A stretch of DNA of 64,000 nucleotides from assembly GCF_016026235.1 (NCBI RefSeq), contig NZ_CP065613.1. One strand, 5' to 3'. The notes beneath the pieces are model-generated. The model saw only the letters and a list, made by a program, of their open reading frames with translations, searched no databases and was not told the DNA's origin. Each line of letters opens with the position of its first letter. The first letter of the stretch is position 1. The stretch comes from Escherichia coli (GTDB taxonomy: Bacteria; Pseudomonadota; Gammaproteobacteria; Enterobacterales; Enterobacteriaceae). Shown one piece after another: positions 50,602 through 60,666 of the stretch. The translations under genes were made by a program, and so were the position numbers.

Positions 50602-50678
50602 GGAGCGGTAGTTCAGTCGGTTAGAATACCTGCCTGTCACGCAGGGGGTCGCGGGTTCGAGTCCCGTCCGTTCCGCCA
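50602..50678 (+). tRNA. aspU: tRNA-Asp (GTC), distal tRNA of the rRNA operon
   Basis: 77-nt GGAGCGGTAGTTCAGTCGGTTAGAATACCTGCCTGTCACGCAGGGGGTCGCGGGTTCGAGTCCCGTCCGTTCCGCCA. Confidence 0.95.
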
Positions 50679-51644: not shown

Positions 51645-52555
51645 GCCTCTCTGACAGCTCCTCCGGGAGCTGTTTTTACATGCTCGCTAAGGAAATCGAT
51701 AAAAGCCCGGATGCGCGTACTTACCGCACGGTCGCTGTAATAGACTGCACTGAATGGCATTTCCACTGGCAACACTTTATCTGCCATTAACTCCACCAAT
51801 TCTCCGCGAGCGATTTCTCTGTCGATCATATAGTCGGACAAACACGCAATCCCGTTGCCACTCAGGCAAAGCTGTTTCAGTGTTTCCCCACTATTGGATG
51901 ACAAACCGTACTTCACCTCATGTAATTGTCCATCGCTACAGGCTATCGGCCAGGTATTGAGGGAAGCGGGTTCAGTGAATCCCAGGCAAACATGTTGCTT
52001 TAAATCGTCGATCGTTTCTGGCTTCCCGTAGCGGGAAATATAATTGGGGGAGGCGATAATTTTTCGATAACTGTTAAATAACGGCCTGGCACGTAAGCTG
52101 GAATCCGTTAACGTACCAGCGCGTATCGCGACATCCACTTTTCTTTCGATCAAATTAATAATCGTTTCGGAGGAGACTAGCGACAAAGTGACTTCCGGAT
52201 AGCGTTCACGGAAAGGCTTAATTAACGGCATCAGAAAGTGCAGCACCACTGGAGTTGCGGCATCGATCCGTAACAGTCCACGCGGTGTATTACGCGTCTC
52301 CATAATTTCTGATTCTGCCGCTGCCATCTCCTGCAAAATTGACTGTACGCGACGAAAATAACGCTCGCCTTCTTCCGTCAGGCTAAGTTGTCGCGTGGTC
52401 CGATTAAGCAGGCTAACGCCAAGTTTCATCTCCAGCTTTTTCACCGCCCGGCTTACCGCAGAGTTTGCTTGCCCTAATTGTTCCGCTGCCCGGCTAAAGC
52501 TGCCGCTTTCTACGACCGAAACAAAAATGGCGAGTTCTTCCGACGTGGCTTTCAT
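51641..52555 (-). CDS. yafC: LysR-family transcriptional regulator YafC
   Basis: 304-aa [67 protein letters not shown]... (LysR HTH). Confidence 0.85.
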
Positions 52556-52744
52556 TTTTGCTCCTGTTGCAAAATAGAAGAGATATTTTGAATTTATTTG
52601 TCATTAAACCATCAGGATGCGTGATATGTCATCCGATTTAATGTTCTCAATAATGAGCAAAATTCTGACCGGTGTAAGCACTTGCTTACATAACAATATA
52701 CAATTGCTCGTTGAAAGAGTGAGCTAAAATCCCTATAACAGTAG

Positions 52745-53596
<852 letters not shown>

Positions 53597-53673
53597 GGTA
53601 TGTCAGGTCTGCCACAGGGCAGACCAACGTATGGCGCTGCCCTTTTATACTCAAACAACAAAAGGACAGCGTA

Positions 53674-54444
53674 ATGACAACACAATCCCACCATGACCAC
53701 GTAGAAAAGCAGTTTAGCTCTCAAGCCAGCGAATATCTGACCAGTACCGTACATGCATCCGGACGAGATTTACAGCGCCTGGCGGTGCGTCTGGCTGATT
53801 ATCCTGATGCAAGTGTACTTGATATGGGCTGCGGAGCAGGGCATGCCAGCTTTGTCGCTGCGCAAAACGTGAGCACGGTGGTGGCGTATGACTTATCTGC
53901 CCATATGCTGGATGTCGTGGCACAAGCTGCCGAAGCCCGGCAACTGAAAAATATCACCACCCGCCAGGGATATGCCGAAAGTCTGCCATTTGCCGATAAC
54001 GCATTTGATATTGTTATCAGCCGTTATTCTGCCCATCACTGGCATGATGTTGGTGCAGCACTGCGTGAAGTGAACCGGATATTGAAACCTGGCGGTAGGC
54101 TGATTGTGATGGACGTAATGTCTCCGGGCCACCCAGTGCGCGACATCTGGTTACAGACGGTAGAAGCATTACGCGATACCTCTCACGTACGAAACTACGC
54201 CAGCGGTGAGTGGTTGAGGTTAATCAATGAAGCCAATCTGATAGTTGATAATTTAATTACAGATAAGTTACCGCTGGAATTTTCTTCATGGGTCGCGAGA
54301 ATGCGTACGCCAGAAGCGTTAGTAGACGCTATTCGCATTTACCAACAGAGCGCATCGACAGAGGTGAGAACGTATTTTGCCTTGCAGAATGATGGCTCTT
54401 TCACCAGTGATATCATCATGGTAGATGCACATAAAGCGGCATAA
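53674..54444 (+). CDS. yafE: SAM-dependent methyltransferase YafE
   Basis: 256-aa ORF with class I methyltransferase motif VLDMGCGAGH; position after yafD. Confidence 0.8.
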   Translation: MTTQSHHDHVEKQFSSQASEYLTSTVHASGRDLQRLAVRLADYPDASVLDMGCGAGHASFVAAQNVSTVVAYDLSAHMLDVVAQAAEARQLKNITTRQGYAESLPFADNAFDIVISRYSAHHWHDVGAALREVNRILKPGGRLIVMDVMSPGHPVRDIWLQTVEALRDTSHVRNYASGEWLRLINEANLIVDNLITDKLPLEFSSWVARMRTPEALVDAIRIYQQSASTEVRTYFALQNDGSFTSDIIMVDAHKAA

Positions 54445-54446
54445 AT

Positions 54447-54480
54447 AAAAAAGGCACCGGGGGAATCGGTGCCTTTTTAT
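54447..54480. terminator. bidirectional terminator between convergent yafE and mltD
   Basis: AAAAAA-GGCACCG-GGGGAAT-CGGTGCC-TTTTTAT. Confidence 0.6.
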
Positions 54481-54491
54481 TATCTGGTTTG

Positions 54492-55850
54492 TCAGGAATC
54501 TGGCATGTTGTTGTTTTTCACAAACAACGTCAGCTTATCGCCTGGTTGCAGATTCGCAGTGTCGCTGTTCCAGCGCATCACATCTTTGATGTTCACGCCG
54601 TGGCGTTTAGCAATGCTTGAAAGCGAATCGCCTTTGCGCACACGATACGTAATGCTATCGCTGTTGTTTGCCAGTCGCTGTGCGCTACTGCCTGCACCAA
54701 TCGTCAAACTTTGGCCTGGCTTCAGCTTAGATCCGCGCAGTTTGTTCCACTGCTGCAAATCTTTGGTGCTTACGCCGAGACGTGAAGCGATACTTGAAAG
54801 CGTGTCGCCAGAGCGTACGGTGTAAACACGGCTGTTAAGCGGCGTATTGTCGGCAACCAGCGTCGACTGTACAGCAGCAATTTCGCCTGAAGCCAGAGAT
54901 TCACGCAGTTGATCTGCATGCTTCTTTGGCACCATCACGTATTGCGGACCACTTGCGCCCAGCGTGGAGCCTTTCACGCCAGCGTTGAATGTCTTCAGCT
55001 TGCTGACGGAAATCCCCGCCATATCTGCAACCTTCGCCATTTCAACCGGGCTGCTCAGGTGCACACGCGCCAGAGCACGGCTTTCATCGGTCGTTGGCAG
55101 ACGTACGCCATAACGCTTGCTGTTTTTGAGAATATCACTCAATGCCAGCATTTTAGGCACGTACTGCTTCGTTTCCTGCGGCAACGGTAACGACCAGAAG
55201 TCCGTGGATTTCCCACGCGCTTTGTTCGTTTTAATTGCCTTCATGACCCGACCTTCGCCGCTGTTATAAGCCGCTACGGTCAGAAGCCAGTCGCCGTCAA
55301 ACATTTTGTTCAGACGCTGCATCATGTTCAGCGCGGCAGTTGTTGAAGCAACAACATCGCGACGCGCGTCATAATTGCGGGTCTGTTTCAAACCATAATT
55401 GCGCCCCGTGCTCGGAATGATCTGCCAGATGCCTGCGGCATTGGCGCCAGACGTTGCGTGAGGATCAAAAGCGCTCTCCACTATGGGTAGTAGTACCAGT
55501 TCCATAGGCATGTTACGTTTTTTAACTTGCCCGGCTATCCAGTACATATACGGCTCTGCCCGTAAAGTTACATCGTGGAGATAGCTCTTATTGCGTAAAT
55601 ATTTCTGTTTCTGTTCGCGAATCCGGTCATTTTCCGGAATTCCCATCTTTAGCTCGTCGCCAATGAAAGCCCACAAGTCACCATCTGGCGCGATAGACGT
55701 CCCATCGTCCATCCATCGTGCCTGACTTGTAAACTTTGCTGCTTCCCCTTGACCAGCTGCAGAAAGGCTCTGTGCGTGCTGTTGAACGTTGCCGGTACTC
55801 TGGCAACCCACGAGCAGGACAGAGGCGAGTAATATCGCTTTTGCCTTCAT
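54492..55850 (-). CDS. mltD: membrane-bound lytic murein transglycosylase D
   Basis: 452-aa ORF MKAKAILLASVLLVGCQSTGN... (lipobox); transglycosylase SLT domain and two C-terminal LysM repeats. Confidence 0.9.
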   Translation of the reverse strand: MKAKAILLASVLLVGCQSTGNVQQHAQSLSAAGQGEAAKFTSQARWMDDGTSIAPDGDLWAFIGDELKMGIPENDRIREQKQKYLRNKSYLHDVTLRAEPYMYWIAGQVKKRNMPMELVLLPIVESAFDPHATSGANAAGIWQIIPSTGRNYGLKQTRNYDARRDVVASTTAALNMMQRLNKMFDGDWLLTVAAYNSGEGRVMKAIKTNKARGKSTDFWSLPLPQETKQYVPKMLALSDILKNSKRYGVRLPTTDESRALARVHLSSPVEMAKVADMAGISVSKLKTFNAGVKGSTLGASGPQYVMVPKKHADQLRESLASGEIAAVQSTLVADNTPLNSRVYTVRSGDTLSSIASRLGVSTKDLQQWNKLRGSKLKPGQSLTIGAGSSAQRLANNSDSITYRVRKGDSLSSIAKRHGVNIKDVMRWNSDTANLQPGDKLTLFVKNNNMPDS

Positions 55851-55921
55851 GTGTGTGTCAATAGTTGCTTAAAAGACGACCGATCATAACGGCGAACGGA
55901 GCCGATGACAAGAAAGTTTTA

Positions 55922-56680
<759 letters not shown>

Positions 56681-56710
56681 TTACCTCTCAGTGTGAAACG
56701 GAAGGTTGTG

Positions 56711-57433
56711 ATGAAACCGGCAAGAGTCCCTCAAACTGTCGTGGCTCCTGATTGCTGGGGCGATTTGCCCTGGGGAGAGCTTTATCGCAAGGCGCTGGAG
56801 CGCCAGCTCAACCCGTGGTTCACTAAAATGTATGGTTTTCATCTGCTTAAGATTGGCAATTTAAGCGCAGAAATCAATTGCGAAGCGTGCGCGGTTTCTC
56901 ATCAAGTGAATGTTTCTGCGCAAGGAATGCCCGTCCAGGTGCAGGCGGATCCACTTCATCTTCCTTTTGCCGATAAATCCGTTGATGTTTGTCTACTGGC
57001 ACATACATTGCCGTGGTGCACCGATCCGCATCGTTTATTGCGTGAAGCCGATCGGGTATTGATTGATGATGGCTGGCTGGTGATTAGTGGCTTCAATCCC
57101 ATTAGTTTAATGGGATTACGCAAACTTGTGCCGGTATTGCGAAAAACCTCGCCCTATAACAGCCGGATGTTTACTCTGATGCGGCAACTGGACTGGCTCT
57201 CTTTGTTGAATTTTGAAGTGCTACACGCCAGCCGTTTCCACGTTCTCCCGTGGAATAAACATGGTGGAAAACTATTGAGCGCGCATATTCCTGCGCTTGG
57301 TTGCTTACAACTTATCGTTGCCCGGAAACGGACTATTCCTTTAACGCTCAACCCGATGAAACAGAGCAAAAACAAACCGCGAATTCGCCAGGCGGTCGGC
57401 GCCACCCGGCAATTTCGTAAACCACAGGCTTAA
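56711..57433 (+). CDS. yafS: SAM-dependent methyltransferase-like protein YafS
   Basis: ORF-track frame 56693..57433 trimmed to ATG at 56711 ([31 protein letters not shown]...), 240 aa; start uncertain. Confidence 0.75.
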
Positions 57434-57897
57434 ACTTCGACTTGGTAGCCCGTATCTTCCAGTGTGGGATTCATTGCCGCGGCACGAGCCAGTTCATCGC
57501 AACGTTCGTTTTCTGGATGACCGGCATGGCCTTTTACCCATTCCCATTTGATTTGATGCTGCCCCAGCGCAGCATCAAGACGTTGCCAGAGATCGACATT
57601 TTTTACTGGTTTTTTGTCTGCGGTTTTCCAGCCACGTTTTTTCCAGTTATGGATCCACTGGGTGATACCCTGGCGGACATACTGGCTGTCGGTACTCAAA
57701 ATGACTTCGCAATGTTCTTTTAACGCCTCCAGCGCGACAATAGCGGCCATCAACTCCATGCGGTTGTTGGTGGTGCGGGTGTAGCCAGCGCTAAAAGTTT
57801 TCTCGCGTCCGCGATAGCGTAAAATAGCGCCATAACCCCCAGGTCCGGGATTGCCCAGACACGAACCATCGGTGAAAATTTCTACCTGTTTAAGCAT
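57430..57897 (-). CDS. rnhA: ribonuclease HI
   Basis: ORF-track frame 57430..58008 trimmed to ATG giving 155 aa ([74 protein letters not shown]...). Confidence 0.93.
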
Positions 57898-57961
57898 CTC
57901 TGGTAGACTTCCTGTAATTGAATCGAACTGTAAAACGACAAGTCTGACATAAATGACCGCT

Positions 57962-58693
57962 ATGAGCACTGCAATTACACGCCAGATCGTTCTCGATACC
58001 GAAACCACCGGTATGAACCAGATTGGTGCGCACTATGAAGGCCACAAGATCATTGAGATTGGTGCCGTTGAAGTGGTGAACCGTCGCCTGACGGGCAATA
58101 ACTTCCATGTTTATCTCAAACCCGATCGGCTGGTGGATCCGGAAGCCTTTGGCGTACATGGTATTGCCGATGAATTTTTGCTCGATAAGCCCACGTTTGC
58201 CGAAGTAGCCGATGAGTTCATGGACTATATCCGCGGCGCGGAGTTGGTGATCCATAACGCAGCGTTCGATATCGGCTTTATGGACTACGAGTTCTCGTTG
58301 CTTAAGCGCGATATTCCGAAGACCAATACCTTCTGTAAGGTCACCGATAGCCTTGCGGTGGCGAGGAAAATGTTTCCTGGTAAGCGCAACAGCCTCGATG
58401 CGTTATGTGCCCGCTACGAAATAGATAACAGTAAACGAACGCTACACGGGGCATTACTCGATGCCCAGATCCTTGCGGAAGTTTATCTGGCGATGACCGG
58501 TGGTCAAACGTCGATGGCTTTTGCGATGGAAGGAGAGACACAACAGCAACAAGGTGAAGCAACAATTCAGCGCATTGTACGTCAGGCAAGTAAGTTACGC
58601 GTTGTTTTTGCGACAGATGAAGAGCTTGCAGCACATGAAGCCCGTCTTGATCTGGTGCAGAAGAAAGGCGGAAGCTGCCTCTGGCGAGCATAA
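57962..58693 (+). CDS. dnaQ: DNA polymerase III epsilon subunit (3'-5' proofreading exonuclease)
   Basis: ORF-track frame 57953..58693 trimmed to ATG at 57962 ([39 protein letters not shown]...), 243 aa. Confidence 0.93.
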
Positions 58694-58768
58694 ATACCTG
58701 TGAAAGGCGCTAAAAATAGCGACTTGGGCGATTTTTGCAGCAAACGATTCAAAAGATGAGAAAAACCA

Positions 58769-58797
58769 TTGACGACGGGTGAGGCAATCCGTAATAT
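58769..58797 (+). promoter_or_regulatory. candidate aspV promoter (-35 TTGACG, 17-bp spacer, -10 TAATAT, GC-rich discriminator)
   Basis: TTGACG at 58769..58774 and TAATAT at 58792..58797, about 28 bp upstream of the tRNA 5' end. Confidence 0.5.
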
Positions 58798-58825
58798 TCG
58801 CCTCGTTCCCAACGGAACACAACGC

Positions 58826-58902
58826 GGAGCGGTAGTTCAGTCGGTTAGAATACCTGCCTGTCACGCAGGGGGTCGCGGGTTCGAGTCCCGTCCGTTCCGC
58901 CA
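58826..58902 (+). tRNA. aspV: tRNA-Asp (GTC)
   Basis: 77-nt sequence identical to the aspU copy at 50602..50678; lies directly after dnaQ. Confidence 0.95.
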
Positions 58903-58932
58903 AATTCACCTCATGAAAATGAGGTTCAGAGA

Positions 58933-58962
58933 ACCGCAAGATTTTTAATTTTGCGGTTTTTT
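58933..58962 (+). terminator. rho-independent terminator after aspV
   Basis: ACCGCAA-loop-TTGCGGT followed by TTTTTT; preceded by a 7-bp GAAA tetraloop hairpin (ACCTCAT-GAAA-ATGAGGT, 58907..58924). Confidence 0.6.
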
Positions 58963-59260
58963 GCATTTAAATCCCGCTATTTCTTCGGTCTATGATTTTG
59001 TTATGCTGTAAATGTGTTAATCACATATGGTAGACCATATCATTAATATTTAATCATACTATCGAATCATTCAATTTAAATATATTTGCATGTTATGATT
59101 TTCATTTTTCTATTGATTTAATGAATTTATATTTGCTGTTATTTTTGTTTGTTCTGATTCAAGTGGAGTATATAATTAAAAATCGTTAGCTAAACATTAC
59201 CATGATTATGACAGGCGAGGGAGTGTCCGATTATGAATTTAAGAAGGGTTTGTTGTATAT

Positions 59261-59845
59261 GTGTATTATTCTCGCTGCTTGCAGGATGTGCCTCTTAATT
59301 CTCCCGTTATACTTGTTCAGTCTGGCAGTCGCGCACCGGAAACCATTATGCAGGAGGAGATGAGAAAATATTATACAGTTGCCACATTTTCTGGCATTCC
59401 TGACAGGCAAAAACCTGTAACTTGTAATAAAGACAAAAACAAAGATGAAAGTCTGGATGTTGTAGATGCCGAAAATATGAACTGGATGCAGGCATTACGT
59501 TTTGTTGCGGCAAAAGGCCATCAGAAAGCGATTATTGTTTTCCAGGATACGTTGCAGACAGGAAAATATGACTCTGGATTGAAATCAATAGTTTGGTCAG
59601 ATTATAAAAATCAAAAATTGACTGACACGATGTCACTGCGTTATTTGGTTCGATTCACGCTGGTGGATGTGGCTACAGGTGAGTGGGCTACCTGGTCGCC
59701 TGTGAATTATGAATCGAAAGTGATTTTTCCGCAGATAGGGAATAAAAATTCTGACAGCCTTGATGTGGCAGAACAGCAGATTTCACAACTTAAGCAGAAA
59801 ACGTACGCAGCAGTGGTTAAAGATCTGGTGAATCGCTATCAGTAG
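59261..59845 (+). CDS. yafT: YafT-like protein body ORF; lipoprotein signal peptide lies upstream in a different frame
   Basis: 194-codon ORF (...[55 protein letters not shown]...); upstream ATG at 59233 encodes [21 protein letters not shown] then TAA at 59296 in a different frame. Internal ATGs at 59348 and 59360, the latter just after AGGAGG. Confidence 0.5.
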
Positions 59846-60186
59846 TAAGGTTTTATACCAGACGTTTTAATGGTACTTAGCAAGAAAGAGCATTTTCTTT
59901 TCTATTTATACTCTGGTTCAAGTCTGCTAATTAATTTTACATATATATTTTTTTAGAAGTAGTAAAAAACTTTACTAAAGTTATTTATTGTTCTCTCAAC
60001 ATATAAGCTGTAGTTCGAGTTTTCGGTTGAACTGTCAAAAATACATCATACACATCTATAAAACAGCAGGTACGGTTAATTAAGAATTTTTATTCGTGAT
60101 TAACCGTACTTTATCATTTTATTTTATAATGTTAAATTGCCTTTTTAAAATATAACAATAATGCAGATGAAAAACTCCCAGGTAAC

Positions 60187-60666
60187 TTAGAAAATCCGTT
60201 CACTCCAAAGGCTGTACGCACTGGTTCCGGCGACGCTGTGCTCCCAGTTAATGCTCTCATAGGTAAATGACACAGACTCTTCCGGCTGTCCTGGGCTGTC
60301 GTTAATGGTATGGGGAACGGTAAGGCCGATGTTTGAGATCCGGGCGTTAGTCAGTTTCACCTTGTAGTACGGTTCATTAACACCAAAGCGGTTGGTGCGA
60401 TAGAATACAAAATCACAGGTCAGACATTCATTCTCCGAAATGGCCTTGCCCAGCAGGGGGGAAGATTTGTCCACCGGTTTCGTGATGGTCAGCTCCTGGT
60501 GGTTGACATTCTGCGCCCGGCTCAGACCATGGGACAGTGACGTCACCATGATCTGATCCTGATGTGCAATCTGGGCTTTGTTACCGATGGACGGCATTGA
60601 CGAGCATCCGGATGAAATCAGCCCCTGAAGTTCTCCGTTCAGTGTCAGATAGACGGGATTTGCCAT
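60187..60666 (-). CDS. hcp: type VI secretion tube protein, Hcp family
   Basis: ORF-track frame 60187..61053 trimmed to ATG (complement 60664..60666) preceded by AAGGAGAATAAC; 159 aa MANPVYLTLNGELQGLISSGCSSMPSIGNKAQIAHQDQIMVTSLSHGL...YKVKLTNARISNIG...FTYESINWEHSVAGTSAYSLWSERIF, Hcp-like length and N/C-terminal pattern. Confidence 0.65.
   Translation of the reverse strand: MANPVYLTLNGELQGLISSGCSSMPSIGNKAQIAHQDQIMVTSLSHGLSRAQNVNHQELTITKPVDKSSPLLGKAISENECLTCDFVFYRTNRFGVNEPYYKVKLTNARISNIGLTVPHTINDSPGQPEESVSFTYESINWEHSVAGTSAYSLWSERIF

Follow-up and report, generated by a model that had tools for sequence, protein, structure and literature searches.

The DNA analysed here, referred to throughout as the window, is a stretch of 64,000 nucleotides of the Escherichia coli chromosome (contig NZ_CP065613.1), and all positions are counted from its first base. 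The genes of interest follow one another in the order rnhA, dnaQ, tRNA-Asp, yafT, hcp, a VasL-domain gene and tssM, and the dnaQ, tRNA-Asp, yafT, hcp order is common to the window and its relatives. The tRNA-Asp gene (aspV; 58826 to 58902, plus strand), identified by ARAGORN and by the Rfam tRNA model at 67.7 bits, is a landmark upstream of both yafT and the T6SS island. The hcp gene lies on the minus strand from about 60187 and is followed by the VasL-domain gene and tssM, with yafT at the edge of the T6SS cluster. Since yafT and hcp are convergent, disruption of yafT should exert no polar effect on genes downstream. An Rfam scan of 58600 to 60300 returned the tRNA only, with no RNA element that might explain the locus, and a promoter and terminator scan of 58880 to 60200 gave no plus-strand promoter-like site upstream of yafT, with counts near the shuffle expectation.

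We observe the same placement of yafT, at a T6SS cluster edge and convergent with hcp, in Hafnia alvei, Buttiauxella, and Salmonella Oslo. An ImpA_N/VasL gene adjoins hcp in Hafnia, Buttiauxella, and E. coli, and the gene content on the other flank of yafT varies by genus. YafT appears to move together with the T6SS island, in which it may serve as an accessory component. Literature searches turned up yafT only in passing, once among the genes that border the T6SS/1 cluster (PMC5422975) and once in connection with an RpoS-holoenzyme binding site mapped to the aspV-yafT-ykfM interval of K-12 (PMC5493296).

At yafT itself, two reading frames share what would normally be one gene. The native Shine-Dalgarno sequence GAGGGAG (59217 to 59223, plus strand), which pairs with the 16S 3′ end at −8.3 kcal/mol, stands upstream of an ATG at 59233. 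From this codon a 5′ remnant of yafT runs to 59298 on the plus strand, comprising the start codon, a complete lipoprotein signal peptide with the lipobox LAGC (Cys19), Ala20, Ser21, and a TAA stop at 59296 to 59298. All 21 codons are identical to the leading codons of intact yafT (WP_001053626.1). The second frame is a long open reading frame (ORF) of 194 codons from 59261 to 59845, which differs in phase from the signal ORF (59261 mod 3 = 2, against 59233 mod 3 = 1) and encodes the YafT body, ending in NRYQ, with no signal peptide of its own. A precomputed PF25851 (YafT) match on an identical 194-aa ORF assigns this body to the YafT family by homology. Within it, positions 59288 to 59845 (plus strand) correspond with 100% identity to codons 77 to 261 and the TAG stop of intact yafT, in the +1 frame relative to the signal.

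As both halves are 100% identical to the ends of the intact 786-bp gene, the arrangement is not a chance pattern of ORFs. The first-pass annotation had described a lipobox signal from 59233 that stops at 59296 after 21 codons and a body ORF to 59845 in a different frame without a signal peptide, and had taken the two mainly for a frameshifted, disrupted lipoprotein gene, yafT-like and shorter than the yafT of K-12. The sequence and the ORF list bear this description out, the identity of the two halves to intact yafT supports the disruption, and the locus measures 613 bp, compared to the normal 786 bp. The cause that it had suggested, a small indel, proved wrong, and the lesion is instead a deletion of 173 bp between two 9-bp direct repeats.

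The 173-bp deletion and the repeats that bound it

The deletion is seen in an alignment of the window with the intact yafT region of E. coli O145 RM9872, in which 801 of 801 window bases (59100 to 59900) are identical and a single gap of 173 columns is opened. In the intact allele this gap is flanked by two copies of TGTGCCTCT. A repeat search found two copies of this 9-mer in intact alleles, 173 bp apart from start to start, and one copy in the window and in each of two draft assemblies discussed below. The sole surviving copy, at 59287 to 59295 on the plus strand, is the deletion junction, and the junction string is CTGCTTGCAGGATGTGCCTCTTAATTCTCCCGTTA. When extended, the two copies in the intact allele are TGTGCCTCTGAAT and TGTGCCTCTTAAT, which match at 12 of 13 positions and keep the spacing of 173.

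Placed on the intact coding sequence, the first repeat copy coincides with codons 19 to 21 (Cys-Ala-Ser, that is, the cysteine of the lipobox and the two residues after it), and the second extends from the last base of codon 76 into codon 79. The lost segment encodes residues 22 to 76. With a length of 3 × 57 + 2 bases, or 57 2/3 codons, the deletion is not a multiple of three and therefore shifts the reading frame, and the TAA directly after the surviving repeat forms a premature stop in the frame of the signal peptide.

Endpoints that both fall within a short direct repeat, of which one copy is kept, are a recognised footprint of slipped-strand or short-homology deletion, and this footprint points to a slipped-strand, microhomology-mediated mechanism. 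The two copies of TGTGCCTCT would have mispaired in the intact allele, through replication slippage or another RecA-independent short-homology route, with the removal of one repeat copy and all of the intervening sequence. The resulting shift would then have led the signal-peptide frame into the TAA at the junction and left the body (codons 77 to 261) in the +1 frame, devoid of a start signal and an export signal.

We read the locus, at a probability of roughly 0.93, as a pseudogene of yafT, an outer-membrane-type lipoprotein gene, that arose through a 173-bp deletion between 9-bp direct repeats. Everything by which sequence can identify a direct-repeat deletion pseudogene is present, namely an intact counterpart, endpoints within a repeat of which one copy is kept, and a disrupted frame with a premature stop. 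From these features it would follow that functional YafT is probably not made in this strain.

Occurrence of the intact and deleted alleles

Intact yafT is 786 bp long and encodes 261 aa with the signal peptide in frame with the body (WP_001053626.1); in relatives it is a single coding sequence (CDS), which several records name lipoprotein YafT. We searched 5,426 complete E. coli genomes by megablast with positions 59100 to 59900 as an 801-bp query. Matches were obtained in 4,182 genomes, and in 581 complete genomes at least 80% of the query was matched. Among the best 60 of the 4,182 matching genomes, the query is spread in two pieces over 974 to 976 bases, which points to approximately 173 extra bases in each of these 60, and in all three genomes that were inspected yafT is annotated as a 786-bp CDS. 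One candidate for a further lesion, a frameshift in O145:H28 RM12761 suggested by a match one base longer, was rejected, as the CDS is intact and the extra base falls outside it.

The junction itself was sought with a 45-mer (59269 to 59313), neither half of which can seed a 28-base word in the intact allele, and it was found in 0 of the 5,426 complete E. coli genomes. A control 45-mer that crosses the left repeat of the intact allele is present in 3,773 of these genomes, which makes the negative result for the junction meaningful. Orthologues with the same arrangement, which the first-pass annotation had said would count against its reading, were thus looked for and none appeared: 3,773 complete genomes have the intact left junction and none the deletion junction. 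An exact look-up of the 194-aa ORF did lead to two draft assemblies that share the junction, GCA_002467135.1 and GCA_002467115.1, each at 100% identity to the window (over 5,700 and 3,498 bases, respectively). These two look like the same clone, and as such they support the sequence and not a repeated origin of the deletion. The deletion allele appears to be confined to one clone.

The rarity of the junction among complete genomes is also what would be expected if the true genome held an intact yafT and 173 bp had been lost during sequencing or assembly. The presence of the allele in two draft assemblies at 100% identity makes such an artefact unlikely, since the exact junction recurs in other public data within otherwise identical sequence. 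Furthermore, assemblers work with k-mers or overlaps longer than 9 bp, so that the collapse of a repeat this short is not expected, and endpoints that fall precisely within a direct repeat are what slippage in the living cell should leave behind. We consider an artefact very unlikely and retain the reading of a true deletion.

The flanks hardly differ from those of the closest complete genome, FDAARGOS_943, with 4 substitutions on the upstream side (52540 to 59286) and 3 downstream of the junction. The only further indel nearby is in an intergenic T-run at 59948, in the AT-rich noncoding sequence between yafT and hcp, which is one T longer than in FDAARGOS_943. An IS1A lies between yafC and yafD in FDAARGOS_943 (8554 to 9320 of record L002) and is absent from the window (52540 to 52549). 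In aspV, the FDAARGOS_943 copy differs by one base at window position 58873 (L002, 15654), G for T, and the aspV of the window matches the region's other tRNA-Asp gene (50602 to 50678) base for base. As far as the T6SS cluster is visible, nothing suggests that it has decayed more widely.

In Logan assemblies of public runs, yafT of the same allele type is also disrupted in other ways, at approximately window positions 59233 to 59350. Seven of these assemblies (L007 to L013), which represent at least three SNP backgrounds, have lost one base from an A7 run; in L006 a T is inserted in yafT, and in L005 the gene carries an 8-bp tandem duplication, CAGTCTGG. These lesions may reflect repeated loss of yafT, or some of them may be homopolymer assembly errors.

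What was removed and what remains

The weight of the loss can be judged from an alignment of 24 YafT sequences, consisting of the intact E. coli allele and 23 enterobacterial homologues from Escherichia, Citrobacter, Pseudocitrobacter, Salmonella, Enterobacter, Lelliottia, Hafnia, and Buttiauxella. All 23 homologues are full-length (253 to 269 aa) and 65 to 82% identical to the intact E. coli allele. All 24 members have the lipobox cysteine in the reading frame of the body, an arrangement that the window has lost. Of the 83 invariant columns, 22 fall within the deleted residues 22 to 76, and they include the motif LTDKD..GNETTL..E.DIQAAL; the window encodes neither this N-terminal motif nor a protein of the family’s full length (about 253 to 269 aa). 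Judging by this conservation, an in-frame version of the deletion would still have cost the protein a conserved part.

When the intact and truncated proteins were scanned against NCBIfam and a local Pfam copy without the PF25851 model, no match exceeded the threshold, and the only subthreshold ones were on the signal peptide or to DUF1869. A sequence search of the PDB gave only an insignificant lipoprotein match (E = 0.31). Given the lack of a significant Pfam or NCBIfam match, the label “aminopeptidase” in some records is unsupported. The predicted fold of the intact protein may resemble that of the periplasm-facing lipoproteins LptE, PelC, and CsgG, and a core beta-strand is predicted at residues 82 to 87.

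Translation of the body could in principle restart within it, at ATG 59348 (Met97 of the intact protein) or ATG 59360 (Met101), both on the plus strand within 59348 to 59362, and the first-pass annotation had offered a shorter cytoplasmic product from these codons. What stands of that suggestion is that the frame stays open between 59261 and 59845 and that AGGAGG at 59352 to 59357 pairs strongly with the anti-Shine-Dalgarno sequence (−10.3 kcal/mol) ahead of ATG 59360. Gene callers have also used these internal starts in public records, annotating products of 165 and 161 aa. However, the spacer between AGGAGG and ATG 59360 is only 1 to 3 nt, much shorter than the usual spacing, and the Shine-Dalgarno match ahead of ATG 59348 is weak (−3.5 kcal/mol). 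A fragment of 161 to 165 aa would have no signal peptide or lipid anchor, and it would lack residues 1 to 96 or 1 to 100, including invariant residues 23 to 96 and the predicted core strand at 82 to 87. If the predicted LptE/PelC/CsgG-like fold is right, the protein faces the periplasm and would not be expected to work in the cytoplasm. Neither is the arrangement the normal state of any orthologue examined. That the locus still yields a cytoplasmic YafT fragment with some activity is, on balance, highly improbable.

The annotation of these starts varies between databases. GenBank records of O145:H28 (e.g., AHG06925.1) give a 165-aa “putative aminopeptidase” or “lipoprotein” from an internal Met, and the matches in O145:H28 span 974 to 975 bases, consistent with the intact allele. 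RefSeq gives a 261-aa CDS in O145 RM9872 and in O145:H28 RM12761, and its start-site annotation is therefore inconsistent with that of GenBank.

The 21-codon ORF, for its part, keeps the native Shine-Dalgarno sequence, the start codon, and the complete lipoprotein signal. It might be exported and processed to a lipidated tripeptide (acyl-Cys-Ala-Ser), and, as a separate matter, the loss of YafT might alter T6SS assembly or self-protection in the lineage; we give these ideas only a slim chance.

The pseudogene beside known alleles and mechanisms

The position of the stop codon invites a comparison with the programmed +1 frameshifting of prfB (RF2), as in both cases a +1 shift at a stop codon would lead back into the downstream frame. 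At yafT, a +1 ribosomal frameshift at UCU-UAA-U (59293 to 59299) would fuse signal and body into a lipoprotein without residues 22 to 79, and a skip of one base at the stop codon does restore the frame of the body exactly. The resemblance ends there, as the yafT site reads UCU UAA U and not CUU UGA C, and has neither the conserved slippery CUU-U nor a suitably spaced stimulatory Shine-Dalgarno sequence; nothing like that of prfB lies 3 nt upstream. A tRNA that decodes UCU is unable to re-pair on CUU, and in E. coli UAA-U provides a strong context for termination. The arrangement moreover stems from a recent deletion and is conserved in no orthologue examined, and the product would still be without the conserved residues 22 to 79. 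Recoding is therefore vanishingly improbable, and the arrangement around the stop codon is an accident of the deletion.

Compared to intact E. coli yafT, the pseudogene occupies the same chromosomal position and is identical in all retained bases to the allele encoding WP_001053626.1, but it has 173 bp missing, signal and body in different frames, and residues 22 to 76 lost. The b0217-type allele of K-12 (WP_001086141.1) is more distant and matches the 801-bp query at approximately 84% DNA identity along about its first three quarters. This K-12-type allele (2632 to 3417 of record L014) contains one exact copy of TGTGCCTCT, and the substrate for the exact 173-bp deletion is consequently absent there.

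The locus is a lineage-specific yafT pseudogene with an ordinary explanation, and both yafT as an E. coli lipoprotein gene and the formation of pseudogenes by short-repeat deletion are already known. For annotation, it should be recorded as a yafT pseudogene due to a 173-bp deletion, and not as the “lipoprotein” or “aminopeptidase” of 161 to 194 aa that gene callers label. The junction, found in 0 of 5,426 complete genomes and in two draft assemblies, is a convenient clonal marker for the lineage. For studies of YafT itself, its conservation, its location bordering T6SS-1 islands of several genera, and its predicted, possibly LptE/PelC-like fold may be of use.

The closest likeness is to pseudogenes formed by deletion between short direct repeats, with which the yafT locus shares endpoints in a perfect 9-bp repeat, the retention of one copy, a nontriplet length, and an immediate stop. 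Set against such deletions it has nothing unusual about it: it is a textbook case, in which the footprint is seen directly and the slippage is what we infer from it.
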